DNA of 64,000 nucleotides from Syntrophales bacterium (GCA_036725345.1 DAIMEJ010000005.1:19717-83716); one strand, 5' to 3'; shown: positions 9,674 to 38,108, counted from the stretch's first letter. Translations and numbers: made by a program. Notes: a model not told the origin generated them from the sequence alone.

Positions 9674-9708
9674 AAAAAAAGGGCCGCAAGCCAATAAACC
9701 CGCAGCCC
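9674..9708 (-). terminator. displaced chromosomal tRNA-Cys terminator
   Basis: On the minus strand, GGGCTGCG-loop-TGCGGCCC followed by TTTTTTT, lying just 3' of the partial tRNA-Cys copy. Confidence 0.55.
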
Positions 9709-9721
9709 TTTTACTTTATTA

Positions 9722-9769
9722 TGGAGGCGGCAACCGGATTCGAACCGGTGAATAACGGTTTTGCAGACC
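9722..9769. repeat. att direct repeat (partial 3' copy of tRNA-Cys)
   Basis: 48 nt identical base for base to 20300-20347 (tRNA-Cys CCA end through the anticodon loop). The sequences diverge at 9770 / 20348. Confidence 0.9.
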
Positions 9770-9878
9770 AATCTTTAGTGTTTAAACCTACCTGATTTCA
9801 ATAACCTTTCCACCCTGCCCTTTTTCCCGTGTTGTGAAAATTGATGGGACTTAATTTTTCGAATGATTAATCTAGATG

Positions 9879-10157
9879 CTATTGCTTTAATTCTTTATTT
9901 TGGATTAAATACCATGACTCATTGGTTAACCAACCCCAATAATTATATCCAATTTCTGATATTATGAATCGATCATTCGGTAATTTTTCATGCAATTTTT
10001 CAGCAATTGTTTTTGCATCGTATTCCGACAACAAATAAAAACAACTTCTCATGTCATATCGCCATGTGATGATTTCTTTTATTGAGTTGATAATATTCAC
10101 CAACTCATCTCGTTTTTCTATTGATCTATTGTGAACTAATAAATAGACCTTTCTCAT
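9879..10157 (-). CDS. hypothetical small soluble protein (cargo cassette gene 2)
   Basis: 92-aa ORF in a strongly AT-rich block. Its start overlaps the upstream gene stop (ATGA, 10154-10157). No family recognised. Confidence 0.6.
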   Translation of the reverse strand: MRKVYLLVHNRSIEKRDELVNIINSIKEIITWRYDMRSCFYLLSEYDAKTIAEKLHEKLPNDRFIISEIGYNYWGWLTNESWYLIQNKELKQ

Positions 10158-10525
10158 TGTCCCCTATACTCAATCGTTGGCGTTTGTGGTGTCTCAATGA
10201 CTTTAGATAAATCAATAGCAGATGGAGATGGTTCACCCTTTTGTTGCATCAATTCTAACGATATTTTCTTTAATTGATATTCTTCTGATTGCAATTTGTC
10301 TCTGTCAAAAATCAATAAAAATAGAAAGCCGAAAACCGCAGTGGCAGCTGGTAAACTCATCAAAATTATAAGCCATGTCGGAGTAGGTGCTGCTAACCAA
10401 CAGCTCAAGAAAATAGCCAGCGGTGTAATTATAGCGCATAGCCATAAGATAGGGTTTAAGGCGCTTCGGACGGTAAGTTTTCCGCCTGCGTCTATTACCC
10501 TCGTTAAGATCTGCCCTCTATCCAT
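10154..10525 (-). CDS. hypothetical two-TM membrane protein (cargo cassette gene 1)
   Basis: 123 aa with two hydrophobic helices (ILWLCAIITPLAIFLSCWLAA, WLIILMSLPAATAVFGFLFLLIF) and a charged C-terminal tail. AT-rich promoter-like region upstream. Confidence 0.6.
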   Translation of the reverse strand: MDRGQILTRVIDAGGKLTVRSALNPILWLCAIITPLAIFLSCWLAAPTPTWLIILMSLPAATAVFGFLFLLIFDRDKLQSEEYQLKKISLELMQQKGEPSPSAIDLSKVIETPQTPTIEYRGQ

Positions 10526-10706
10526 ATATCCTTTAAAATTAAAAAAATAATACTTAGCTTTATTAAGAAGAGTGTTTTATATAACAAAAACTTTGAAATA
10601 ATTCATGTTAATTTTATTATGATTTTATGAAGAGGGCATTATCTTTTTAATCCCCTTTTGAATTTAAATCCCCCCCTAAAAGTACATTAACCGCCGAAGT
10701 GCTTCC

Positions 10707-11804
10707 TCAAGAAGAAAAACTTTCTTTGACACTCTCCATCACGATAAGTTTAGTTTTGGAAATGTTATCTAACAATTTCACCGCATTTAGTTTATGGCCC
10801 GGAAGCGGATGCTGATACCTCAATGCCATCTTAATCGTCTTGTGTCCCATGATTTCCATGATCGTTTTCACATCAACCCCCGCCATGCCGAGCCGTGATC
10901 CGAAAGTGTGACGAAGGTCATGGAACCTGAACCGAACCTCTTTCAGTTCACCACGGACATTTTCGAAACGCTTTAACCCCGCCTTGTCTATTGCCGTCCA
11001 GAAGGCGTTAGTGAGGACGGTCAGCCTTTCCCCCTTTTCGTTGCAGAAAACATATTCGGATTTCTCGTCTTCGATGCGTTTTCTCAGGATAGCGATCGCC
11101 GTTGCGTTGATCGGCACATTGCGGCCCTCTGTGTTCTTGGTCACGGTGACGCTGACATAACGATCCTTCAGGCGCACATCCTGTACCCGCAGGTTCATGA
11201 TCTCCCCGAGCCTCATCCCCGTATTGAGGGCGAATGTGACCATGCCCGGAAGGTACTTCTCCCGTTGTGGTCGATCCTCGCAAGCCTGAATGAGCCTCTT
11301 TTCCTCTTCCGGGGTCAGTACCCACATCTTCTCGTTATCCTCTTTGAGCATCTTCACCCTGACAAGGGGATTGTGATTAAGCAGTTTCCACTCGACGGCC
11401 TTGTTGAGCATGTTCCGAAGCGTGGCGATGTCCCTGTTCACCGTCGCGGGGGCCTTCTTCCCTTCCCTTCTCGCCTTCCTGAATTGCTCCACGGAAAAGG
11501 GGGTGATGTCGCCGAGCATCTTCCCGTCGAAGTGCTTTTTCAGGGTGTCGATCGAAACCCCGTTGCGCTTCGCCGACCCCGGCTTCTTGTTTGCCCCGGC
11601 GTACTTCATGTACCGCTTCGCGAAATCATCAAAGAGGATTTTCTTGATCTTCGGCTTCCACTCCCCCTGAATGACCTCTTGCCTGCGTATGACGAGCTTC
11701 TCCTTCGCCACGGTCCTGCTCACCGGGCCGACACACTCGCTGTACCGCCTGCCGTCATAAACGAAATCTATGTAGTGACTTTTGCCTCTTTTATAGACGC
11801 CCAT
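10707..11804 (-). CDS. int: tyrosine-type site-specific integrase
   Basis: 365 aa with the C-terminal catalytic signature HDLRHTFGSRLGMAGVDVKTIMEIMGHKTIKMALRYQH and an upstream NTGMRLGEI Arg box. Confidence 0.95.
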   Translation of the reverse strand: MGVYKRGKSHYIDFVYDGRRYSECVGPVSRTVAKEKLVIRRQEVIQGEWKPKIKKILFDDFAKRYMKYAGANKKPGSAKRNGVSIDTLKKHFDGKMLGDITPFSVEQFRKARREGKKAPATVNRDIATLRNMLNKAVEWKLLNHNPLVRVKMLKEDNEKMWVLTPEEEKRLIQACEDRPQREKYLPGMVTFALNTGMRLGEIMNLRVQDVRLKDRYVSVTVTKNTEGRNVPINATAIAILRKRIEDEKSEYVFCNEKGERLTVLTNAFWTAIDKAGLKRFENVRGELKEVRFRFHDLRHTFGSRLGMAGVDVKTIMEIMGHKTIKMALRYQHPLPGHKLNAVKLLDNISKTKLIVMESVKESFSS

Positions 11805-11835
11805 ATAATCACCTTCCTTCTTTTTCGTAACTTCA

Positions 11836-12132
11836 TCATATCTTGTTGTTTTTTTCAGCTTTGTCCAATCTGTCTAATTCCTTTTCTAATTCATCCAGTA
11901 CTCCATCTAAATCACTTTTATTCATGCGTGCTTGCTTGAGTGCCTCCCTATGCGATTTTCCTTCTCTATAAATGTAGAACAGAATCAACGGCCAGAAAAT
12001 GATACCCAACAAAACAAAATGTAAGTTCCTTAAATCAATCTTTCTGTCAAAACCATGAGCTTGCGATTGTCGAATCTTATAATAAACAACTAATACCCCT
12101 ACGATTAACCATCCCAAGACAACCTTTGTCAT
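11836..12132 (-). CDS. hypothetical two-TM membrane protein with coiled-coil tail
   Basis: 98 aa with helices VVLGWLIVGVLVVYY and FVLLGIIFWPLILFYIY, then LDGVLDELEKELDRLDKAEK. AT-rich DNA. Confidence 0.55.
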   Translation of the reverse strand: MTKVVLGWLIVGVLVVYYKIRQSQAHGFDRKIDLRNLHFVLLGIIFWPLILFYIYREGKSHREALKQARMNKSDLDGVLDELEKELDRLDKAEKNNKI

Positions 12133-12319
12133 GGCACTGTCCCCCTAAATGCTTTGATTTCAAAATTTATCTTCTTTCTGTGAAACCCCTACCTATACAA
12201 AAAAGCCTGAGACCTTCCCCGGAGCATAAGCATCCGCCCAAGCGTCGCCGCCGTGGGGATCTCAGGCTTTCTAATCTTGTCCTGTTTCATTGCTTATGCC
12301 TCGGGAATTTAGTTTTATA

Positions 12320-12331
12320 AGTTATATAACT
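12320..12331. promoter_or_regulatory. perfect 12-bp palindrome, candidate operator
   Basis: AGTTATATAACT lies in the divergent intergenic region, 66 nt upstream of the RHH gene start. Confidence 0.3.
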
Positions 12332-12396
12332 ATATGCACCTATTAAATCAAGAAAAATTACGTTGCGGATAATACCGCGTTTCGGTATAAAAGGCC

Positions 12397-12567
12397 ATGT
12401 CAACCGAGTTGCCAAAAATCATTTTTCACCTTGATGAATCGTTACTGAAGCGCCTTGATGATTTCCGTTTCAAGCATCGCATCAATTTCAGGTCCGCCGC
12501 CATCCGACGCCTTCTCGAAGAAGCCTTGAAGAAATACGAGAAACGCTCGATGAAGAAAGGGGGATGA
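12397..12567 (+). CDS. ribbon-helix-helix (CopG/Arc/MetJ-like) DNA-binding protein
   Basis: 56-aa ORF below the track cutoff, translated by hand: MSTELPKIIFHLDESLLKRLDDFRFKHRINFRSAAIRRLLEEALKKYEKRSMKKGG. It shows a beta-strand-helix-helix pattern. Its stop is 4 nt before the next gene. Confidence 0.65.
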   Translation: MSTELPKIIFHLDESLLKRLDDFRFKHRINFRSAAIRRLLEEALKKYEKRSMKKGG

Positions 12568-12571
12568 TATA

Positions 12572-13048
12572 TTGAGGAAATATTTTACCCTTCTTTTCAT
12601 ATTTGCTGTCTTGACACCCACTAATCTTTTTGCGGCTGATTTCTATCTATATCTGGATAACTGCAAAGCCACCGTGGGATACCTCGTCGAATCCAAAGAA
12701 AATATCAAAACAGTTGATTTTGATGAAATGATCATTTCGTGTAGTAGAGTATCCCAGACAATTAAATGCGAAACGGTTTTTTTTGAAGGACAAAAAGCCA
12801 TTCAAGAGAAAAAGTTTGAATACTTCGTTGAGTTAGATTCTCCGCCGATTCTCATTTTCACCGACACAATACGGAGCGACTATTTCGTGGTAGATCTTAA
12901 TCAACACGCCGTGACAATGGTTTCACGAGTTTTGGGTGAAAAATTTGCAGGATCTAAAATTTGCACGGGCCTATATTTTACTGAGAGTGAAAGAAAATTG
13001 TTAGAAGAGAAGAAGCCCCGCACTCCTACCCCTACCCGCAAAAAATAA
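12572..13048 (+). CDS. hypothetical secreted protein
   Basis: 158 aa with a TTG start and signal peptide MRKYFTLLFIFAVLTPTNLFA. It has four Cys and a basic Pro/Thr tail. No family recognised. Confidence 0.55.
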   Translation: MRKYFTLLFIFAVLTPTNLFAADFYLYLDNCKATVGYLVESKENIKTVDFDEMIISCSRVSQTIKCETVFFEGQKAIQEKKFEYFVELDSPPILIFTDTIRSDYFVVDLNQHAVTMVSRVLGEKFAGSKICTGLYFTESERKLLEEKKPRTPTPTRKK

Positions 13049-13121
13049 TCGCCCTGAATCAATCCTGCGAAGCCCTGAATAGGCATTGACGCCCTGTCCC
13101 CGGAGTGGTATCAAATTCGAC

Positions 13122-13424
13122 ATGGATATTTCAGACCGTGATGACAATATAATCACCCTGCTCGCCTATTATCTGCACCTTGATGCGCTTAAAAAAGAGG
13201 GCCTCCTTGACAATGAATTGTTAATTAAATTTTATGAAAATTTAACTGACGAACAAAAGATGCATCTTGTTTTCTTCCAATACAAACAAATATCACTTGC
13301 TAACGAATGGAAGAAATTTCTTGAGAACCCCGAACCTAATATCAGCCGTTCCGAAGCCGTCCGTCGCACCTTTGATGAAGCCATGAAGAAATTCGAAGAA
13401 CGGATAAAAAAAACGGAAAAGTGA
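13122..13424 (+). CDS. hypothetical helical protein
   Basis: ORF 13086-13424. The ATG at 13122 (MDISDRDD...) is the likelier start. AT-rich, and no family recognised. Confidence 0.5.
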   Translation: MDISDRDDNIITLLAYYLHLDALKKEGLLDNELLIKFYENLTDEQKMHLVFFQYKQISLANEWKKFLENPEPNISRSEAVRRTFDEAMKKFEERIKKTEK

Positions 13425-13439
13425 GCCTCCTTTCCGCCC

Positions 13440-13544
13440 TCACCGCACCATAAACGAAAGAATCCAAAAGATCACAGCCGCCGTCACTATAAAGCAATAG
13501 ACGATCCCCGGCGGGCTTTTGATTAAGTCTCTGAAAGTCTCCAT
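13440..13544 (-). CDS. possible 34-aa single-TM peptide
   Basis: Hand translation METFRDLIKSPPGIVYCFIVTAAVIFWILSFMVR. Its ATG is 2 nt after the stop of the upstream HTH gene. Support comes only from position and hydrophobicity. Confidence 0.25.
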   Translation of the reverse strand: METFRDLIKSPPGIVYCFIVTAAVIFWILSFMVR

Positions 13545-13545
13545 G

Positions 13546-13857
13546 TCATTTCTCCGTTGATCCGTTCTGAATGAGGGCGATCACGCTCGACCTGAAGATA
13601 CGGATCATCTTCCCCGTCGGATTGATGCCCCTGATGATGCCCTCGTCCTGCCATTCATAAATTTTCTTGATGGACACCCTGAAGAAAGCCGCAACCTCTT
13701 TCGGCTTCAGGAGATCACGATCGGGAAGCCCTTCGATGCTTTTCAAAGAGTGCGCCGCCTTCCCCTGCCAATCTTTTTTTAGGGACGGCCCGGAAGAAAG
13801 GGGAAAAAACCGGGCCATCCCCCGGAAAAGAGGTGACGGTATCGCCTGCGCTAACAA
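13546..13857 (-). CDS. excisionase-type (HTH_17/MerR-like) DNA-binding protein
   Basis: C-terminal LLKPKEVAAFFRVSIKKIYEWQDEGIIRGI helix-turn-helix. The start may be the internal Met at 13818. Confidence 0.7.
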   Translation of the reverse strand: MLAQAIPSPLFRGMARFFPLSSGPSLKKDWQGKAAHSLKSIEGLPDRDLLKPKEVAAFFRVSIKKIYEWQDEGIIRGINPTGKMIRIFRSSVIALIQNGSTEK

Positions 13858-13929
13858 AGGGATTTAACCCCGCGCGGCACACAGGCGATTTTCCGCGCCC
13901 GTCATCACGGTCAAGACGCCGCGCTTAAC

Positions 13930-15225
13930 TTATGTGAGGATCGCGGCCCACGAAAGCGAATCCGATCCGTTTGCGGGCGTGATCGCCGACTTCCAGATCG
14001 AAACGCCGTCCGCACGCAGGCAGGCCCGCCACGAAATCAAGTCCTCGGACCATCTCGCGCTGTTCGTGCTTTCAAGCGTCACTTCCTGCCTCATGGCGAG
14101 GATATACTGCGAGAGATCGGCGCAGACCAGATCGCCCTTTGTCCCGAGGGCCGAGAGCCGATCGGACACGATCAAAGGCCTGCCTAAAATGCTCATCGCA
14201 AAATCGCCCTGAATGTTCCCGCCCGAGATCGGCCAGATCAGGCCGTTCGCATCGTCCTTCAATCTCAAAATTTGCAGAAAAGCCCCCGGAGAGCATATCC
14301 AGACAACATTCGTGAGAAGCGGGGGCCAGATGCGCGAGAGCATCGCGGTGATGTCCGCATATCCGATCGCTCCCGCCGTCGCCCTCGCGATGCTGACCGC
14401 CGAGGGGGAGTCGATAACGCCCAACGGCTGACCGACGCCGCTCCCGACGAGGATCGCCTTGTCAAGACCCCCGGCGATCGCCTGCACAAGAGCGCCGCCT
14501 AACTGTGTCCCGAAGTCGATCCCGTCCTGCACAAGCTCCCTCGACGCCGAGGCATAAACGATCAGTTTTTTCGGAGTGAGAAGGACGCTCGTTAGTTCCG
14601 GGGACACTTCGGTTGATGCCGTGGCCTCGGCGGTCCATGTCGCTTCGATGTTCCCGACTTCTCCCGTGGTCCGGTCGAAAGAGTTCCACAGGGGGAAGTT
14701 CGTGTCGCCTGTCACCGGGACGGTTCGGACATACTTTGCCGTCACGCTTTGCGCCGCGATCAGGTTGACAAGGGCCGCGGACCAAAATTCTGGCACAAGA
14801 AAACCTCCCAGAACGCCCCCGCCTGCGATGTTCGTCCTTCTCTCGACGGTCCCGGTCGCCACGGCGTTGCAGAAGTCGCTGAAGCTGTCATACCCACCGC
14901 GATCCTCGGACGGCCCGAAAAGCCGCCGATAGTCAAGGCCGATCTGACCGAGCCGGGGGATCGGATCGAGCGATCGGGTTGTTTTGGGCTGATGAAGCCG
15001 TCTGATCGGCTCATTATCCCTGCGATCCAGTTCGGCGAAGATTTCCTTTTCCTGTTTTTCGAGATCGCGGTATTTCTGATCCTCGGCCTCCGACAGTTCC
15101 CCGGCCTTCTCGCTGTCCGTGAGAATACGGCTCATGCGATGCAGGATGTCCCCGCGATTCTCCCTCAATTCCGCGTCTGACATTTTCTTGAAATCTGGGT
15201 TCGTTGTTTCGGTGCGTGCTTTCAT
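13930..15225 (-). CDS. phage major capsid protein, HK97 family
   Basis: 431 aa. Charged coiled-coil N-terminal (delta-like) segment, then GGFLVPEFW, SRELVQDGIDF, GSGVGQPLGV and ILGRPLIVSD blocks typical of the Phage_capsid/HK97 family. GGAGG RBS. Confidence 0.9.
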   Translation of the reverse strand: MKARTETTNPDFKKMSDAELRENRGDILHRMSRILTDSEKAGELSEAEDQKYRDLEKQEKEIFAELDRRDNEPIRRLHQPKTTRSLDPIPRLGQIGLDYRRLFGPSEDRGGYDSFSDFCNAVATGTVERRTNIAGGGVLGGFLVPEFWSAALVNLIAAQSVTAKYVRTVPVTGDTNFPLWNSFDRTTGEVGNIEATWTAEATASTEVSPELTSVLLTPKKLIVYASASRELVQDGIDFGTQLGGALVQAIAGGLDKAILVGSGVGQPLGVIDSPSAVSIARATAGAIGYADITAMLSRIWPPLLTNVVWICSPGAFLQILRLKDDANGLIWPISGGNIQGDFAMSILGRPLIVSDRLSALGTKGDLVCADLSQYILAMRQEVTLESTNSARWSEDLISWRACLRADGVSIWKSAITPANGSDSLSWAAILT

Positions 15226-15261
15226 TTATCCTCCATTGAAGGTTGAATTTGCCTTCCACAC

Positions 15262-15329
15262 CGACCACAAAATAAAAAACGGGCGTTGCCTTCCTTATCC
15301 CTCCTCAGAGGGGGAAAGCACGCCCGTTT
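15262..15329 (-). terminator. strong intrinsic terminator immediately upstream of the capsid gene
   Basis: On the minus strand, AAACGGGCGT...(inner CCCCCTCtgagGAGGG)...ACGCCCGTTT followed by TTTATTTT. It lies between the 95-aa ORF stop (15387) and the MCP start (15225). Confidence 0.7.
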
Positions 15330-15386
15330 CAATTTCATGGCGGCTTCTATGTTCTTTTTTATTCATATCACATCCTGACCTGATAT

Positions 15387-15674
15387 TCAATCGGAATCAT
15401 CATGACGCCGCTTTTTCGGCATCTCATAATCATAATAGGCGCGGGGCTTCTCGTCGGCCTTCAGGGTCACGAACACGCCGGGGAGCCGGGGCTTCCCCGC
15501 AAGGCCCATGAGATAGGCGCGGTTCGCAAACCATCTTTCCCTGCGCTCGGAATCGTCGCGGAAGGGATAGCCACCGCCCAAGTGCCAGCCAGCCAATAAA
15601 TGCGCCGTCTGAAACGGGGTCAGACCGGAATCATTCAGGCGTTCGATTTTTTTCTTGACGGGCTTCCTCGGCAT
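15387..15674 (-). CDS. hypothetical protein (95 aa)
   Basis: Trimmed from ORF 15387-15845 to the ATG at 15674, which follows GAGGAT and lies 10 nt after the terS stop. No family recognised. Confidence 0.5.
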   Translation of the reverse strand: MPRKPVKKKIERLNDSGLTPFQTAHLLAGWHLGGGYPFRDDSERRERWFANRAYLMGLAGKPRLPGVFVTLKADEKPRAYYDYEMPKKRRHDDSD

Positions 15675-15684
15675 ATTCTGATCC

Positions 15685-16014
15685 TCACTTATAAAGTCCC
15701 GGCGGGCGGCTCTCGGGGATGCTCCCGAGATCGATCGCGATCTCGCGGACGGCCCGCAGGAATCCGATCCGCGATTGCTGAATGATCTTCGTCCCGGGAT
15801 GCTCCACAAGCCCGCCGTATCGGTTCCTGATGAACATCCCGTCACTTTCGATCGCCTTCATCGCCTGATCCTCATCGTCGAGAAAAAGGCACGCCCGCTC
15901 AAGACGGGCGAGATCGTGAGCGTCCCTGATCTCAAATTCTTTAAGAACGGCTATCCAGAATTTTCGGCCCGCTTCCTTCAGGGTCGAAGGCGGCTCCGGT
16001 TTGTCAATCGTCAT
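15685..16014 (-). CDS. phage terminase small subunit, P27 family
   Basis: 109 aa. The pattern GRKFWIAVLKEFEIRDAHDLARLERACLFLDDEDQAMKAI...GGLVEHPG resembles Terminase_4 (P27) small subunits. Confidence 0.8.
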   Translation of the reverse strand: MTIDKPEPPSTLKEAGRKFWIAVLKEFEIRDAHDLARLERACLFLDDEDQAMKAIESDGMFIRNRYGGLVEHPGTKIIQQSRIGFLRAVREIAIDLGSIPESRPPGLYK

Positions 16015-16117
16015 ACATACTCCCTCAATCGCTTTGAACAGGGTGAAAACGCACTAAGCGGACAGACCGGGAGCGTTATACGACGGAAAGTTTTTCGAAA
16101 GTCGATGCCCCCCGGCG

Positions 16118-16339
16118 TCATTGAATAAGCCTCGGTTTCCCGTCAATGCCCTGTTCCTCAAGTTCCTGTGCGGCTCTGTCCACAAGATATTGCCCGATGA
16201 TGCCGACGATCCCCTGAAGCGTTATCGCCGCGTTTTGCAGGCCTTCGAGATCGCCCTTTGCCATGAAGCCGTTCACCCACGCCGCGATCCGCTCGACCTC
16301 TTTTCGGTTCTCACGCATGAATTTGTCTGGTTTGTCCAT
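16118..16339 (-). CDS. hypothetical protein (73 aa)
   Basis: ORF sits in operon position between the primase and terS. No family recognised. Confidence 0.5.
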   Translation of the reverse strand: MDKPDKFMRENRKEVERIAAWVNGFMAKGDLEGLQNAAITLQGIVGIIGQYLVDRAAQELEEQGIDGKPRLIQ

Positions 16340-16412
16340 GTTCGTTCCTCTCTGTTTTTTTTAGATTCGCCCCGGCCCGATTCCGTGCGCTCAGACAAGA
16401 TTTCCCTTGTGG

Positions 16413-18428
16413 TTATCCTTCCCGGCTCGGGAAAGGGACACTCGTTGAACATCTGCGCCCCTGTGCGATAATAGGACGCAACGGCTCAAATTGAAGTTTT
16501 GCCCCCCGTGGATTCCGAAACCGGATATGCTGACCCTCGGGCAACCGGATGTCATCAACGATATACCGGACCTTCTTCAGAATGACATAGCCGTCGATGC
16601 CGCCCTGCTCTTTCCACATCGTCATGTGAATTGTCGCCGCATACTCGCTCTGTTGTTTTCCCTTTGCGGTATTCACGCCCTCGTCCTTCTGGATGGCGAC
16701 CAATACCACGCCGCTTCCGACCCTGCTTTTCATCCGTCTTAGATAGGTGTCCAGATTCGGATAATCGTCCGGGCTGAATTGAAACCAATCCAGAATGTTT
16801 ATGGCGTCGGGGACGATCAGGTCGGGATAATCGGCGGCAGGACGGGCGACTTCTTCACGGAAGTGGAAACGCCAATCATTCATCAGGCGGTGAAACCGTG
16901 GATCGGCTTCCTGTTCGAAACGGCGCAGATAGATGTTCACCTCATGCCGATTCAGTTCGGTCGATGTATAGACAATCCGGTGATCGTGGTCGTTCAATCG
17001 GATGAAGTTAAAGAAATAGGTTGATTTCCCTGACCCCGGCTCACCCGCAAGGACGATGAGCGAACCGGGATGGATGTCGGCATATTCGTGAAACCCGCCG
17101 GGAAGGGCGAGGCTGATAGGCTCTACCTGCTCTACATTCCGATAATCCACGAAACCGATGTGCGACAAAACCCGCCGATAAGCCCCGGCCCTCTGCGGAT
17201 GCCGTTCCGCATCGCCCCTCTGCACGGCACGGTGCAGATATGTTTTCGTCCTCACCGTCTTAATTCCCGTCCACCGGGAAACCTCGTCAATGGTCGTCCA
17301 CTTCCCTTCGTTTGCGAGGCAATCCAGAATCTTCCCATAATCAGAAGGCTGTGACCTGAATTGTGACTTCGAGTGACCGTCACAGGGTTGCTGTGACCTG
17401 TTTTCGTCGGCAGTTTCGTTCAAGTCCCCGAAATCATTAGAGGCGGCATTTTTTTCGGGCGTTTCGTCAGCCTGTGACCTGCGTGCGTGCGTATTAAAAG
17501 ATATATTTATATATTCCACATGTGGTGACTGATCCTCTGCGGTATCATCGCCGGGAGCTTGTGACACATTTTGTGACAGGTAACGCCTTGCCCTCTTGAT
17601 CTCATCGGCAAGCCAACGGTGACGGCCCCCGCCCTTCCCCCGGTACTTCAGGCCGCAGGGATAATTCTCGAAGATGTGATAGACGGCCCCCGGCTCTGCG
17701 CCCTGTGACAGCATGGAGCATATCAGGGCGAACCCCGCTTCGGATCGCGAGGGGTACTTCCCGATCGCCCCTTCCGTGACGAAAGCCCGAAGGTCATCCG
17801 AAAAAGTGAAGTCCTCGGGATCGACCTCGACGGGGTTGCCCAGTTCCATGTCGTTGTCGCCGTCGGCTTCCTCGTCTGCGGCAAGGCCCAGAAACCACTC
17901 GGGCGCCTCGGCGATCCGCACATCGAGCGATATTTCATACAGCTTCCCCGTGTCCGGGTGAACAGAGCCGGGAGCGACCACGCATCCCCCGTCGGCCCTG
18001 ATGTCGAAGCCGTGTTCCTTGAACGTCCGGTTGCGGTATCGCGTGCCGTTCTTCGGGTAGCGGAAGTAGTAGTGAAACTTTCCCGATCCTGTCATGACCT
18101 CAAGCGTGGTCGGGAGTCTCCACTTCTGACCCTCGGCGTACTTCCGAAACCGATCAAGATCGTCAATATCGAGAACGATCAGGCCCGATGCGGGACCGCA
18201 GGCGATCCCGGCGTTCTTGCCGATGTACTCACAGCCGTGAAACGGCCTTTGCTCCCTGCACCACTTCTGCCAATCGCTTTCGAAGGGAGCCTTGCCGATG
18301 AGCGGTATTAGGGAAAGGTCTCTCTCGTCGTGTAGCTCCCGCCACAGCAAGGGCGATTTATTTTCTGCGAGTGTTCCGACCTGCTCGGGCGTCAAGTCTT
18401 TCCACTTCCTTTCCGGTTGTTCGTTCAT
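16413..18428 (-). CDS. bifunctional PrimPol-type primase / P-loop replicative helicase
   Basis: Start trimmed to the ATG at 18428, preceded by GGAGGTGG. The N-terminal Prim-Pol pattern is GKAPFESDWQKW...GIACGPASGLIVLDIDD. A low-complexity linker and a wHTH-like segment follow, then Walker A LAGEPGSGKST and a RecA/DnaB-like C-terminal domain. Confidence 0.85.
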   Translation of the reverse strand: MNEQPERKWKDLTPEQVGTLAENKSPLLWRELHDERDLSLIPLIGKAPFESDWQKWCREQRPFHGCEYIGKNAGIACGPASGLIVLDIDDLDRFRKYAEGQKWRLPTTLEVMTGSGKFHYYFRYPKNGTRYRNRTFKEHGFDIRADGGCVVAPGSVHPDTGKLYEISLDVRIAEAPEWFLGLAADEEADGDNDMELGNPVEVDPEDFTFSDDLRAFVTEGAIGKYPSRSEAGFALICSMLSQGAEPGAVYHIFENYPCGLKYRGKGGGRHRWLADEIKRARRYLSQNVSQAPGDDTAEDQSPHVEYINISFNTHARRSQADETPEKNAASNDFGDLNETADENRSQQPCDGHSKSQFRSQPSDYGKILDCLANEGKWTTIDEVSRWTGIKTVRTKTYLHRAVQRGDAERHPQRAGAYRRVLSHIGFVDYRNVEQVEPISLALPGGFHEYADIHPGSLIVLAGEPGSGKSTYFFNFIRLNDHDHRIVYTSTELNRHEVNIYLRRFEQEADPRFHRLMNDWRFHFREEVARPAADYPDLIVPDAINILDWFQFSPDDYPNLDTYLRRMKSRVGSGVVLVAIQKDEGVNTAKGKQQSEYAATIHMTMWKEQGGIDGYVILKKVRYIVDDIRLPEGQHIRFRNPRGAKLQFEPLRPIIAQGRRCSTSVPFPSREG
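17348..17580. other. origin-of-replication-like iteron cluster with AT-rich core, inside the primase coding sequence
   Basis: CTGTGACCTG occurs perfectly at 17348, 17390 and 17471. TGTGAC cores are at 17361, 17559 and 17571. GTGACCGTCAC palindrome at 17372-17382. A 24-nt almost pure A/T run spans 17491-17514. CCACATGTGG palindrome at 17515-17524. Confidence 0.5.
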
Positions 18429-18526
18429 ATCCACCTCCGAAATGGATGTCCGATAGTCAAGGCGCGGGGAGCGGGTCGGAGTTCCCGCCGTCAGCCGATC
18501 GAGCCTACCCCGCACCCATTTTGCCG

Positions 18527-19480
18527 TCACGATAGAAGCCGCTTTTTGTCTTGTTCGTTGTCTGATTCGTGGCGATTTCTATCTCCGTCCAGTTCTGCAA
18601 ATTGTCTCAGGAGCCGAGCCTTCCCTGCGTCAAAACTAAGCCTTGCCGATGTCCCTTCGTATATGTCCGAATTGAAAGTTTCCCTGCGAACAACCAAATG
18701 GTCTATCTGGTCACTCAAGCGCGGCATCATGTCGGCAACATACTGAATGAATGAACCGAACGGTTGTATTTGATAAAGCTTTCCGTCTTGCCCTGTGTCG
18801 GTTGTCTGTTCTGCTTTCTGTTCAACGAAAACATCCATCCGCCTGATTATAATTTGAGCTAACGTTCTTGCCCGTTCAAATGTAGCTTCCTTCCAATTCT
18901 TCGGCGGCTCTTTAGGAAGGATCAAAAGAACCCGTTCAAGCGTTTCAATATAAATCTGCGCTTCAAGGCTATCTTCTATCGAAGATGCTTTGCTTTTCGA
19001 TTGCTCTTTTCTCTGCTTTTCTTTCTCGTAATTTATGGCATTGATAACGGCGGTCTTTGTCGGGATGTCCTCGTTCTCCCTCGCCTGCGCTTTTATTTTC
19101 TCCACCACAGCCGGGTTCTCGGAAATGGCTCGGGCCTGATGCGCTCGCTTATGGTCTATGCCTTCGGGAAGCACTTTTGATGGTGTACCCTTCGGGACAC
19201 CTTTCCGTCCGGTCATCGCTTTATCCCTGCTCGGCAATAGCTCACCGATGCGGCCTTCAATATCGAGAAGAAGTTCCCCCGCATCCTGACCGTCTTTCAG
19301 CGTGGCCTTTCGCTGTTCTTCTGCCATACCTAACTTGTCCATCGCCTTGACCTTCGCCCGGTAATAACTGACAGCCGCTTGCCCAATGAATGACAACGGC
19401 ACAAGGTCATCCAGTTTTCCGGGCAGTAGCTTCTGCGCCTTCACCAGTTTGAAAATCTCTGTGGCTTCTTTTCCCTTCAT
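18527..19480 (-). CDS. hypothetical protein (317 aa)
   Basis: Start trimmed to the ATG at 19480, after AAGGGGG. Charged, helical, and no family recognised. Sits between the AlpA-like gene and the primase. Confidence 0.55.
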   Translation of the reverse strand: MKGKEATEIFKLVKAQKLLPGKLDDLVPLSFIGQAAVSYYRAKVKAMDKLGMAEEQRKATLKDGQDAGELLLDIEGRIGELLPSRDKAMTGRKGVPKGTPSKVLPEGIDHKRAHQARAISENPAVVEKIKAQARENEDIPTKTAVINAINYEKEKQRKEQSKSKASSIEDSLEAQIYIETLERVLLILPKEPPKNWKEATFERARTLAQIIIRRMDVFVEQKAEQTTDTGQDGKLYQIQPFGSFIQYVADMMPRLSDQIDHLVVRRETFNSDIYEGTSARLSFDAGKARLLRQFAELDGDRNRHESDNEQDKKRLLS

Positions 19481-19505
19481 GGTATGCCCCCTTCTTTTTC
19501 TTTTT

Positions 19506-19700
19506 TTATTCCTTGACAACCTCGTTGAGCTTCACACCCGGCGATGCATCGGCCCACGATTCGATTTCGTCACGGAAAAAAATTAACCGTCCACCCGCCT
19601 TCCTGAATGGGATCCGTCGGCGAAGCACAAGGTTCCTGACGGCTCCCGGTGTCCGGTGGAGATAATTGCTCACATGCTGTACCAACCAAATTTCACGCAT
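19506..19700 (-). CDS. AlpA/excisionase-type HTH regulator
   Basis: 64 aa. IWLVQHVSNYLHRTPGAVRNLVLRRRIPFRKAGGRLIFFRDEIESW fits the HTH_17 pattern. Confidence 0.7.
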   Translation of the reverse strand: MREIWLVQHVSNYLHRTPGAVRNLVLRRRIPFRKAGGRLIFFRDEIESWADASPGVKLNEVVKE

Positions 19701-19893
19701 CGGGAAAGATTTCCTTCTCGTCGCAGGTGAGAAGCTTCGCCCACTTCCTGCGTTGCTCTGCCGTCAGAACCTTCCGTCCCCGCAGGACGCGGGACACATC
19801 GGCTTCGTGGATTCCGACCTCGCGTGCAAACTCCCATTGTGACCCGTGGGTTTCGATGATCCGGGCCTTCAGCTTCCTGTTCACATCCTTCAT
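19693..19893 (-). CDS. Cro/XRE-like HTH regulator
   Basis: 66 aa. SQWEFAREVGIHEADVSRVLRGRK is a helix-turn-helix. AGGAG RBS. First gene of the minus-strand operon. Confidence 0.7.
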   Translation of the reverse strand: MKDVNRKLKARIIETHGSQWEFAREVGIHEADVSRVLRGRKVLTAEQRRKWAKLLTCDEKEIFPDA

Positions 19894-19910
19894 GGCTCGC
19901 TCCTATGCTG

Positions 19911-19950
19911 AAAATAAAAAAAGCCGCCCACGCCAAACGGCGTGAACGGC
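19911..19950 (-). terminator. intrinsic terminator just upstream of the Cro-like gene
   Basis: On the minus strand, GCCGttCACGCC-gttt-GGCGTGggCGGC followed by TTTTTTTATTTT. It ends 17 nt before the ATG at 19893. Confidence 0.6.
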
Positions 19951-20076
19951 CTTCCAATTGCGAATTGTGTTTTTTAAAGAGCCATCATTGCAAATGCCGC
20001 TTCACACGCATGGCGGTGTCAACTAACTGCGCTGGGACGAAAAGGGTAATCACATCTGCGATGATGTTCTGAATAA

Positions 20077-20104
20077 ATTTTACTGTGTTATTTCTGAACG
20101 TCAA
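20077..20104 (-). promoter_or_regulatory. candidate sigma-70 promoter reading toward the Cro-like operon
   Basis: On the minus strand, TTGACG (20104-20099), a 16-nt spacer, then TAAAAT (20082-20077). Confidence 0.35.
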
Positions 20105-20241
20105 CAAGAAAATTGCTTATGCCGAAAATACTGCCCTATCTGATGCATCTGATGCATGGAAAGGTGTTGTGAAAATTACTGTGACTCGGGAGGCGAAAAG
20201 CGGGTTTTTTGTGCTTTACCGTACTTTCTGTGATACTCATC

Positions 20242-20286
20242 GAGAAAAAGAAAAAGGGTCGCAAGTCATTGATATACCTGCAACCC
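20242..20286 (-). terminator. element-borne terminator now serving the tRNA-Gly/tRNA-Cys transcript
   Basis: On the minus strand, GGGTTGCA-15 nt loop-TGCGACCC followed by TTTTTCTTTTTC. Homologous with indels to 9674-9708. Confidence 0.55.
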
Positions 20287-20299
20287 TCTGACTTTATTT

Positions 20300-20347
20300 T
20301 GGAGGCGGCAACCGGATTCGAACCGGTGAATAACGGTTTTGCAGACC
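20300..20347. repeat. att direct repeat inside the intact tRNA-Cys
   Basis: Identical to 9722-9769. Confidence 0.9.
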
Positions 20348-20375
20348 GCTGCCTTAGCCACTTGGCTATGCCGCC
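20300..20375 (-). tRNA. tRNA-Cys (anticodon GCA)
   Basis: Reverse complement GGCGGCATAGCCAAGTGGCTAAGGCAGCGGTCTGCAAAACCGTTATTCACCGGTTCGAATCCGGTTGCCGCCTCCA folds as a cloverleaf. Anticodon loop CTGCAAA, discriminator U, encoded CCA. Confidence 0.95.
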
Positions 20376-37085: not shown

Positions 37086-38015
37086 TCACTTCGCCCTCGG
37101 GTGCGACTTGTCGTACACCTCCATCAGGCGACTCACGCTCACCGCCGTGTATTTCTGCGTCGTCGACAGGCTTTCGTGACCGAGCAACTCCTGAATGACA
37201 CGGAGATCCGCACCGGCGTCGAGAAGGTGAGTCGCGAAAGAATGCCGCAGCGTGTGCGGCCCGACCCGTTTGTTCACCCCGCTCATGCGGATGTATTTCT
37301 CGACGATCCGGGCCACGCTTCTTTCCGTCAGCCTCGTGCCCAGCCGATTCACGAAAATCGGGGCCTCGAGGTAGTTCTCCGCCCTGGCCCGGACCAGCGC
37401 TTTCCGTTTCTGAAGGTACGCCGAAAGGGCCGAGATCGCCGGCTTCCCCACAGGAACGATCCTTTCTTTCCTGCCCTTTCCCTTGACCTTCATGACGCCC
37501 TGGCCAAGATCGACATCCCCGAGATTAAGACCCGTCAGTTCTCCAACCCGGACACCTGAAGAGTAGATGAGCTCCAGGATGGCCCTGTCCCGTCGTCCCG
37601 CCGGATCGTCCCCGAAGGCCACTTTCAAAAGCGAGAACACCTCGTCCACCGAGAGGCTGACCGGCAGGTACTTATCCCTTCGGGGCGACTGGACCATTTC
37701 GGCGGGGCTCTGCCTCACCCTTCCCCGCCGCACGAGGAAATTGAAAAAGGATCGAAGCGCCGCCACCTTCCGGGACACGGTGCTCCTTTTCGTCTTGTTC
37801 CGATAGAGGGAACTCAGAAAGGACCGGATGACCATGTGGTCGATCTGGTCCAGCCTCCCCCTCGGCAGCAGCTCCTGCCCCTCGAGAAATCCCCTGAACT
37901 GATTCAGGTCAATGAGGTAATTCCGCTTCGTGTGAGGGCTCAGGTTCCGCTCGCTTTCCAGGTGGACGCCGAACTCCCCGATGAGCTTCTCCAGTGTGGT
38001 GTCGCCTTTTGTCAT
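37086..38015 (-). CDS. xerC: tyrosine recombinase XerC/XerD family
   Basis: Start set at the ATG at 38015. GVRVGELTGL Arg box and C-terminal HTLRHSFATHLLDAGADLRVIQELLGHESLSTTQKY. The xerC-hslVU context supports XerC. Confidence 0.85.
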   Translation of the reverse strand: MTKGDTTLEKLIGEFGVHLESERNLSPHTKRNYLIDLNQFRGFLEGQELLPRGRLDQIDHMVIRSFLSSLYRNKTKRSTVSRKVAALRSFFNFLVRRGRVRQSPAEMVQSPRRDKYLPVSLSVDEVFSLLKVAFGDDPAGRRDRAILELIYSSGVRVGELTGLNLGDVDLGQGVMKVKGKGRKERIVPVGKPAISALSAYLQKRKALVRARAENYLEAPIFVNRLGTRLTERSVARIVEKYIRMSGVNKRVGPHTLRHSFATHLLDAGADLRVIQELLGHESLSTTQKYTAVSVSRLMEVYDKSHPRAK

Positions 38016-38108
38016 TTCACAAAAAGAAGTGCCACGAAAACACACAAGGGAGGACCTCACATCGGATTCAGGGCCGGTTGTTCGTCCGTGTGTTCTTGTG
38101 GCAGATAT

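Follow-up and report, generated by a model that had tools for sequence, protein, structure and literature searches.

What does an integrated element do with a capsid gene and a small terminase gene when the other genes of a phage head are missing? The question is raised by a 64,000-nucleotide stretch of DNA from a Syntrophales bacterium (GCA_036725345.1 DAIMEJ010000005.1:19717-83716), called here the window, in which both genes lie on the minus strand between positions 13,930 and 16,014. An earlier note, made from the sequence alone, had read the pair as a minimal module for hijacking a helper phage, with the capsid gene insulated by a strong terminator. Our analysis confirms the observation and partly supports the interpretation, which got the gene content and the satellite nature of the element largely right. 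We consider it probable that the surrounding island is an integrated, helper-dependent phage satellite that works, as a whole, by the mechanism proposed below. What carries this reading is established directly, namely the identities of the genes, the borders of the island, the conservation of the gene cassette and its hairpin, purifying selection, and the absence of other head or packaging genes.

Two virion genes on an island in a tRNA-Cys gene

The capsid gene is an intact open reading frame (ORF) for a major capsid protein (MCP) of 431 aa, and its assignment to the HK97 type holds. The product matches PF05065 (Phage_capsid, E 1.1e-33), phrog_10 'major head protein' (4e-44) and TIGR01554 'major_cap_HK97' (2.7e-48 over residues 19-418, 165 bits for a cut-off of 27.5). 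An AlphaFold2 (AF2) model built from 50 homologues (predicted local distance difference test, pLDDT, 84.5) begins at the N-terminus with a helical hairpin (helices 17-41 and 46-71), which is followed by a disordered linker (75-90) and an HK97 body (~135-431). Its top Foldseek matches in the PDB are all HK97-fold capsids, those of RcGTA (6tb9, 1.9e-16), Mycofy1, T5, EcCI2 (9gyi, E 9e-13), HK97 and SaPI1. Because the mature PDB chains align at ~135-431, we take the first ~90 residues to be a delta or scaffolding domain, such as HK97 gp5 and T5 pb8 bear and the prohead protease removes.

Comparison with two related elements, L001 and L023, indicates how this protein has evolved. Residues 89-431 are 80% identical between the window and L001, and residues 1-88 of the same pair align no better than shuffled sequences (z 0.8); residues 1-74 of the window protein are, in turn, 53% identical to L023. 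On these alignments the MCP is a mosaic whose delta-like N-terminal domain has been swapped between close relatives. It is tempting to speculate that the swapped domain is the place where the protease and portal of a helper would be contacted. The ratio of nonsynonymous to synonymous substitution rates (dN/dS) is 0.19 between the window and L001, which indicates purifying selection, with synonymous sites saturated (dS 1.39).

The second gene had been described as a P27-type small terminase (TerS). The family assignment stands, while the protein itself is an atypical short form of 109 aa whose own scores lie below the cut-offs: 2.5e-4 and 21.9 bits for PF05119 (gathering score 24.7 bits) and 9.7e-6 and 25.6 bits for TIGR01558 (cut-off 45.6). 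It matches phrog_83 at 4e-8. Assignment to the P27 family is sound because 13 of 15 aligned relatives match PF05119 (best 3.3e-31) and because of the position before head modules, longer relatives standing directly upstream of modules that encode the large terminase (TerL), portal, protease and MCP (L037, L087 and L090). What the long forms beside TerL have and the short form lacks is a basic stretch at the N-terminus (RGxKPKPT..GNPGKRP) and an acidic tail at the C-terminus; the short form is found in the window, in L001, L021, L023 and L004 and in the EPIP satellite Alyssa1. Searches of PDB sequences with TerS, singly and as a profile, gave nothing useful. Between the window and L001, dN/dS is 0.35 for TerS and 0.31 for the conserved 73-aa ORF (orf73) at the head of the packaging cassette, at a saturated dS of ~1.3-1.7; for the cassette genes overall it is 0.19-0.45, again at saturated dS.

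Between terS and the capsid gene lies a 95-aa ORF, here ORF X, which starts MPRKPVKK. The ORF after terS opens with MPR-x-(P/Q)-(R/K) in the window, L001, L023, L021 and L004, and the rest is not alignable across lineages. Judged by their sequences, the X proteins thus share their start only. A reading of ORF X as the remnant of a TerL N-terminus was dropped: its sole support was a match of the 196-aa counterpart in L004 to phrog_10517 (E 0.001), the TerL N-termini of related full modules differ, and the X proteins have the MPRxP/Q(R/K) start alone in common.

That the element encodes exactly two virion or packaging proteins is borne out. Every island ORF was scanned against Pfam, PHROGs, NCBIfam and PADLOC, and MCP and TerS were the only virion-related products; no portal, protease, TerL, HNH, connector or tail gene was found in the island. 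Portal or TerL genes elsewhere, as would mark a split prophage, did not turn up in the 64-kb window either: in the remainder of it, neither hidden Markov models from related loci nor a PHROG summary of 44 ORFs revealed a gene for a phage portal, TerL, protease or tape-measure protein (TMP). One 'head maturation protease' PHROG match, at 1413-2303 on the minus strand, is the host SppA (Peptidase_S49) beside rpsA and is not phage-related.

The island is ~10.58 kb long (~9770-20347), being bounded by a 76-nt direct repeat (92% identity) that includes the 3' 48 nt of tRNA-Cys, the gene into which it has integrated; the flanking genes are housekeeping genes. It has the general marks of a phage satellite, a small integrative element with its own integration and replication genes and an incomplete virion module. 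The satellite reading proposed earlier also fits the intact attachment (att) repeat, the purifying selection on the MCP, the presence of the cassette on other small backbones, and the circular or tandem form of some relatives. Contigs from many samples, at least 20 in all, carry an identical MCP; several end inside the island or at its end, and breaks at the island end are as expected for a polymorphic insertion.

The unit in front of the capsid gene

Upstream of the MCP gene lies a conserved non-coding block made up of a leader, a hairpin, a T-run and a downstream GGAAGGCAAA. It is 89% identical to L001 over 127 nt, compared with 72% nucleotide identity in the MCP body, and is the only strongly conserved DNA between the window and L001. 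The hairpin, which the earlier note had placed at 15277-15329, is real and was located to within 1-3 nt. Over 74 nt it folds with -36.2 kcal/mol (z -5.8; none of 200 shuffled sequences did as well), or with -51.7 kcal/mol when its flanks are included (z -7.8). A U-tract, U6-A-U4, follows it directly, and a GC-rich hairpin with such a tract is what defines an intrinsic (Rho-independent) terminator in sequence; hairpin and T-run end 45 nt upstream of the MCP start. A simple terminator scan missed the structure because of its compound loop. The GGAGG ribosome-binding site (RBS) reported for the MCP is also present, 4 nt before the ATG at 15225.

The hairpin had been described as separating the MCP from the terS operon. 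It does not simply end that operon, since it lies within a conserved unit that has a promoter-like element. The motif TGATATGA, invariant in the window, L001 and L023, can be read as an extended -10 (TG-n-TATGAA/G), and 17 nt upstream of this -10 stands a possible -35: TTGAAT in the window, TTGCAA in L001 and TTGACA in L023 (TTGACA-17-TATGAG). A promoter scan did not call the window element, whose -10 hexamer is without a final T, and from its sequence the element is a candidate promoter only. As the hairpin sits in a conserved unit with this promoter-like element ~35 nt upstream, its appearance is that of a promoter-proximal terminator or of a gene for a small RNA. From the ATG within TGATATGA, small ORFs extend through the hairpin, of 23 aa in the window (15300-15368), 39 aa in L001 (6628-6747) and 38 aa in L023 (3359-3475). 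A leader peptide from this ATG is unlikely: the lengths differ, the window stop lies in the hairpin loop, and there is no conserved RBS.

The way in which the unit varies among relatives is informative. Window and L001 hairpins differ at three positions, all in the internal loop. In L023 the hairpin has the same length and position and a different stem sequence (47 nt, z -5.7), between conserved flanks: TGATATGA ~35 nt upstream, the leader motif CATAGAAsCGyCA, and GGAxGGCAAA downstream. Structure and position kept while the stem sequence changes argue for a terminator-type structure and not for a sequence-specific site such as cos, and a cos site was rejected as the main reading of the block for the same reason. 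The block has no family match in Rfam.

Three distant relatives have an analogous hairpin 32-46 nt upstream of the MCP, two of them with a near-consensus promoter further upstream. In L092 this promoter (TTGACA-17-TATATT; 11 of 12 matches, with TG) precedes a leader and then a hairpin whose U6 ends 45 nt short of the MCP ORF; in L007 the promoter (TTGACA-16-TATTCT) is followed by ~150 nt of leader and by a hairpin of -40 kcal/mol, the U6 of which ends 46 nt from the MCP; in L030 the layout of promoter, leader and hairpin is weaker. These three independently support the promoter-leader-terminator design. No such element was found before the MCP in L021, L004, L017, L018 or the phage-type loci. 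The earlier note had asked whether homologous elements keep the order terS-ORF-terminator-MCP; the order holds in L001-L003 and L023 and fails in L021, where the gap from X to MCP is 22 nt, and in L004, where the intergenic region is different. In L004, which has no terminator, positions 9830-9930 contain two copies of a ~20-nt motif, (G)ATCCATAGAT(C/T)(A)CGCGGGCG, which from its sequence may be the binding site of a regulator.

Much like the unit described here, the lambdoid late control region PR'-qut-tR' with its antiterminator Q places a promoter, a short leader RNA and a strong intrinsic terminator before structural genes. The likeness is one of layout, and no Q-like protein or qut element was identified in the island. 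A further parallel is found in P4, where late genes of the satellite are activated in a helper-dependent manner, P2 Ogr acting on P4 Psid.

Relatives, known satellites and the rest of the island

All of the closest full-length MCP relatives lie on small integrase-bearing elements. In L001-L003 (L001 being a 9.3-kb contig) the MCP is 72% identical and the genes are integrase, HTH_17, Toprim/AAA_25, a 72-aa ORF, TerS, a 79-aa X, MCP and HTH_17. In L023 a TerS 65% identical to that of the window is followed by X and then by the N-terminus of an MCP. The 9.3-kb L021 adjoins tRNA-Asn and carries integrase, D5_N helicase, primase, TerS, an 81-aa X and MCP, and L004 has its integrase at tRNA-Lys, followed by DnaB/AAA_25, TerS, the 196-aa X and MCP. 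Three elements from IMG/VR (L028, L029 and L031) combine TerS, X and MCP with a serine recombinase and PrimPol in units of 7.6-8.0 kb. As far as gene order and sequence tell, terS-X-MCP thus recurs as a portable unit, on at least five unrelated backbones of integrase and replicase genes. Exact terminal overlaps or repeats occur in L001 (30 nt), L031 (123 nt) and L026 (99 nt), and tandem copies in L028 (1977-7606 and 9580-15222, 97.3% identity) and L027 (93%), which is suggestive of circles or concatemers, or of related satellites integrated in tandem.

More distant MCP relatives fall into other settings. Five of them (L007, L018, L030, L066 and L092) are on small integrase elements with a TMP-like protein of ~520-666 aa; L007 also has a ClpP protease. 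These five are without portal or TerL and resemble EPIP satellites. MCPs that match the body only belong to ordinary prophages with portal, protease and MCP (L019 and L020). The TerS and MCP families of the cassette also occur in complete TerS-TerL-portal-protease-MCP modules (L037, L087 and L090), and for this reason the cassette looks like an HK97-type head module minus TerL, portal and protease.

How does such a gene set compare with known satellites? The integrase-regulator-replicase layout is common to the island, to P4 and to the phage-inducible chromosomal islands (PICIs) of the Staphylococcus aureus pathogenicity island (SaPI) type. SaPIs and P4 differ in that they remodel the helper coat with scaffolds (CpmB, Sid) and are not known to encode an MCP. 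VEIMEs (integrative mobile elements that are encapsidated in virions), unlike this island, also encode no MCP.

The novelty implied by the earlier note was overstated, for two kinds of satellite with similar content are already described: PICI-like tycheposons with MCP or TerS, and EPIP satellites with TerS and MCP. For the PICI-like tycheposons of Prochlorococcus the minimal virion set is 'either a terS or MCP' (Hackl et al., bioRxiv 10.1101/2020.12.28.424599; Cell 2023). In the passages of that work available to us, tycheposons are, much like the element in the window, small tRNA-integrated islands with a tyrosine recombinase, a primase/helicase or PrimPol and a predicted hijack of phage particles. 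The island has the tRNA-Cys, a partial tRNA copy at the far end and a replicase, and it carries both MCP and TerS, not one of them. It differs in its fixed terS-X-MCP cassette and in its host, an anaerobic member of the Syntrophales in place of a marine cyanobacterium; a terminator gate is not described in the same passages. On what these passages say, PICI-like tycheposons are the closest published concept, with the reservation that the integrase here matched the generic families PF00589 and phrog_1 only.

EPIP satellites of Mycolicibacterium were isolated as particles; they are ~11 kb long, have TerS and MCP and no portal, TerL or protease, and provide experimental evidence that small-capsid particles can arise from such a set of genes (PMC12822802). 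The TerS of the EPIP Alyssa1 (OR387110) is homologous to that of the window, both being of the short form (29% identical across 94 aa, with E 1e-12 in the pairwise comparison and 2e-5 in a search of the phage database). EPIPs differ in having a serine integrase, a head-to-tail adaptor and stopper, a separate scaffold and a TMP, whereas the island has a tyrosine integrase and is without these extra structural genes, no TMP or adaptor having been found in it. The EPIP MCP is a 274-aa protein without a delta domain and its similarity to the window MCP is marginal (E 0.004). Capsid-forming PICIs (cf-PICIs; Alqurainy et al. 2023), finally, encode MCP, protease, portal, connectors, TerS, TerL and HNH (PMC10690885) and steal only tails. 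Both they and the island would make capsids from an HK97-fold MCP of their own and have a P27-type TerS, and the capsid of the cf-PICI EcCI2 is among the structural matches given above. Measured by this gene set, the island is without five of the seven head and packaging functions of a cf-PICI, namely portal, protease and connectors as well as TerL and HNH. The open-access papers that we searched hold no description of the terS-X-MCP cassette as such, nor of a terminator gate before a satellite MCP.

Outside the cassette, the island, read along its minus strand, encodes in order a Cro-like helix-turn-helix (HTH) regulator, an HTH_17 protein, an all-alpha protein and a PrimPol-helicase, which lead into orf73, TerS, ORF X, the hairpin block and the MCP; after the MCP come a second HTH_17 protein, small ORFs in a low-GC stretch, the tyrosine integrase and a further two small ORFs (Table 1). 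The AF2 model of the all-alpha protein (pLDDT 83.8) is entirely helical. The 288 homologues of the protein, ~230 aa long, are without a Pfam domain, and one of them adjoins RecT in a phage-like early region; a fold search against the PDB gave no match (best E 0.26). A hidden portal, scaffold or TerL in this ORF was rejected on the grounds of its all-helical make-up, the lack of a fold match and the place of homologues in early regions, with a scaffold role judged unlikely. The ORFs of the low-GC region have no match in Pfam, NCBIfam, PADLOC or PHROG, and defence cargo was rejected there since PADLOC and Pfam gave no match. More broadly, the integrase-proximal third of the island (9800-13500) has a GC content of 38-51%, against ~57%, with small ORFs for membrane or secreted proteins without a family.

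Several smaller structures accompany these genes. The weak hairpin ~105 nt past the MCP stop is a possible 3' end of the MCP unit; it is statistically not strong (z -1.4 for the region). Two further terminator-like hairpins are strong: one, past the displaced tRNA-Cys fragment, is probably the terminator that the tRNA had originally, and the other, between tRNA-Cys and the first island gene, would stop tRNA read-through into the island. A 23-nt direct repeat (9829-9851 and 20164-20186, 87% identical), ~60-110 nt inside each island end, may, from its position and sequence, represent recombinase or excisionase binding sites. In assembly ERZ27257425 (L012 1-4763, compared with L010), the island (99.97% identical) and its right flank recur with other DNA on the left, where spermine synthase, Memo/AMMECR1 and radical SAM genes are found; the switch lies between tRNA-Val and tRNA-Gly and could be a strain rearrangement or a chimeric contig. 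Elsewhere in the window, a XerC/D-type tyrosine recombinase (37086-38060, minus strand) lies beside a low-GC patch at 38-39 kb and is not linked to the island.

Table 1. Features of the island and its borders, in minus-strand order, followed by features of related loci.
Feature	Position	Strand	Basis
Intact tRNA-Cys	20300-20375	-	ARAGORN; Rfam tRNA 68.5 bits
Left att direct-repeat copy	20272-20347	-	76-nt repeat, overlaps tRNA-Cys; joint feature 20272-20375
Terminator-like hairpin, 17 pairs + T-run	19918-19955	-	Scan; between tRNA-Cys and first island gene
Cro/CI-like HTH regulator, 66 aa	19693-19893	-	Sub-threshold Pfam: DUF739 2.8e-5, YdaS_toxin, HTH_31, HTH_3; PHROG repressor families
HTH_17 (AlpA/Xis-like) protein, 64 aa	19506-19700	-	PF12728 6.7e-7
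All-alpha protein, 317-330 aa	18527-19519	-	No family match in Pfam, PHROGs, NCBIfam or PADLOC
PrimPol + P-loop helicase replicase	16413-18530	-	PF09250 3.6e-24; phrog_1156; weak GvpD_P-loop/DnaB_C at residues 483-550
Conserved 73-aa ORF (orf73)	16118-16339	-	48% identical to L001 72-aa ORF, same position
Short-form P27-family TerS, 109 aa	15685-16014	-	Weak own profile scores and aligned relatives
ORF X, 95 aa	15387-15674	-	No family match in Pfam, PHROGs, NCBIfam or PADLOC
Candidate sigma-70-type promoter: TTGAAT, 17-nt spacer, TG-a-TATGAA	15362-15390	-	Read from sequence
Conserved non-coding block	15247-15372	-	Comparison with L001
Intrinsic-terminator-like compound hairpin + T-run	15270-15330	-	Paired 15276-15330; TTTTTTATTTT at 15270-15280
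GGAGG RBS of MCP	15230-15234	-	
HK97-fold MCP, 431 aa	13930-15225	-	Profile matches and AF2/Foldseek
MCP delta/scaffold-like helical hairpin, codons 1-88	14962-15225	-	AF2; TIGR01554 model spans it
MCP N-arm + capsid body, codons 89-431	within 13930-15225	-	AF2/Foldseek
Weak hairpin (5 pairs) + T6	13800-13825	-	Pattern scan
Second HTH_17 (excisionase/AlpA-like), 3' of MCP	13546-13857	-	PF12728 2.1e-8; L001 homologue in same place, 49% identical
Low-GC accessory region, 38-51% GC	11836-13424		Three small ORFs: 11836-12132 (-), 12572-13048 (+), 13086-13424 (+)
Tyrosine integrase	10707-11804	-	PF00589 2e-36; phrog_1 4.7e-73 (generic families)
Two small ORFs, 123 and 92 aa, between integrase and attR	9879-10525	-	phrog_27377 7e-13, phrog_1090 2e-9
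Right att copy (displaced tRNA-Cys 3' part + downstream terminator)	9694-9769	-	Rfam partial tRNA 23.5 bits
Terminator-like hairpin after displaced tRNA-Cys fragment	9677-9712	-	Terminator scan; strong
ORF X counterparts, 79-196 aa	L001 6333-6572; L021 6922-7167; L004 9155-9745; L023 3081-3299		
TMP-like genes	L007 11279-13225; L018 9126-11126; L030 3029-4591; L066 2661-4409; L092 2507-4420		

Competing explanations and what the island may mean

In the mechanism that we favor, infection by a helper tailed phage, or its induction, would lead the island to excise and replicate. The short TerS would redirect the large terminase of the helper to satellite DNA, by analogy with SaPIs, which redirect packaging through a TerS of their own. 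The MCP, with its own delta-like domain, would build capsids on the helper portal, probably small ones sized for ~10 kb, which the helper protease would mature and helper tails would join; portal, protease and tails would have to come from the helper because the island is without these genes. The MCP would form a separate transcription unit of promoter-like element, ~85-nt leader, terminator, ~45 nt, RBS and ORF, and with so strong a terminator in such a unit, full coat expression probably needs read-through, perhaps triggered by a factor of the helper or of the satellite. The earlier note had suggested antitermination or a dedicated late promoter for the MCP, possibly supplied by the helper; antitermination driven by the helper is an inference. 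That the terminator gate serves as a regulated antitermination point is a possibility we hold tentatively, short of calling it probable.

Several points weigh against this reading. The window TerS, taken alone, scores under both curated thresholds, and the C-terminal extension absent from short TerS proteins could be the contact with TerL. The candidate promoter fails the rule of the promoter scan for want of the conserved final T of its -10. The gate is not essential to the cassette, since L021 and L004 are without it. No helper phage was identified. An exact-match scan for the hairpin core found nothing in viral_contigs or metagenome_contigs, the latter a weak negative because the scan also missed the source sequence, present in JGI metagenome 3300010355; a protein scan with the MCP found no relative among GTDB representative genomes. 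The circular and tandem relatives are assembly-level evidence, this island is known from sequence alone, and a delta-domain MCP needs a protease and portal that match it, so that its fit to those of a helper is assumed.

There are other possible explanations for parts of the picture. The block before the MCP could be a small-RNA gene of ~85 nt (~15355 to 15272) whose end product is the RNA, for instance one that regulates transcripts of the satellite or the helper, on an island that would still be a satellite and would make its MCP by read-through or from upstream transcription. A promoter-like element, short leader, strong terminator and T-run are the typical layout of such a gene, the 89% nucleotide conservation of the block is far above that of neighboring synonymous sites, and the leader motif is kept in L023 despite the changed stem. 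However, the block matches no Rfam family, it is known in three sequence variants only, two of them nearly identical, and the unit always stands directly before the MCP start, 45-59 nt away. Unrelated sequences of the same layout before the MCP in L007 and L092 point to control of the MCP in cis and not to a trans-acting RNA. We think a small-RNA gene unlikely here. A different use of the capsid gene itself would be as a weapon of interference, a decoy coat subunit that joins the helper coat in assembly or competes with it, poisons helper capsids and so protects the host population. Satellites commonly block helper assembly (SaPI, P4 and the PICI-like elements, PLEs), tight gating by a terminator would suit a toxic or costly product, and the N-terminal domain expected to touch helper parts is the one swapped between close relatives. 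Yet a TerS invariably accompanies the MCP, on elements of 7.6-10.6 kb, in keeping with elements that build and fill small heads of their own; the MCP retains a full-length HK97 fold, delta-like domain included, under purifying selection; and EPIP satellites that bring an MCP form small capsids of their own (PMC12822802). One role does not exclude the other, and a mainly interfering MCP seems to us improbable.

Less probable still, and in our judgment very much so, is a decaying and immobile remnant of a prophage or capsid-forming PICI that has lost TerL, portal, protease and connectors. The occurrence of the same TerS and MCP families in the complete head modules of L037, L087 and L090, the shortening of TerS at both ends and the want of an identified helper, for an island seen as sequence only, would agree with decay. 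Opposed to this are att repeats and an integrase that are intact, cassette genes that evolve at a dN/dS of 0.19-0.45 at saturated dS, an identical reduced cassette on at least five unrelated backbones, relatives that assemble as circles or tandem units and are present in IMG/VR, and contigs that break repeatedly at the island end, as for a polymorphic insertion.

A helper-dependent satellite stays our preferred explanation, and it can be extended further. The island might represent a widespread satellite class without a name, defined by a portable terS-X-MCP cassette, a coat that assembles on a foreign portal, an exchangeable delta-like adaptor to the portal and protease of the helper, and an antitermination gate opened only by a factor that the helper encodes or induces. 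Taken jointly, these elements make a proposal that we regard as doubtful.

Known satellites either reshape the coat of their helper (P4, SaPI, PLE) or bring a whole head kit (cf-PICI), and this island stands in between. It thereby raises the question of whether the portal and protease of a phage can nucleate and mature a capsid of foreign coat protein, and of which part of the coat gives the fit. Experiments can take hold of two specific features, the N-terminal domain that has been swapped and the terminator gate that is conserved. The relatives, of 7.6-10.6 kb, carry several types of integrase and replicase and are partly filed as 'viral genomes' in IMG/VR, which suggests that anaerobic and environmental bacteria commonly harbor elements of this design and that the satellite finders now in use miss them.

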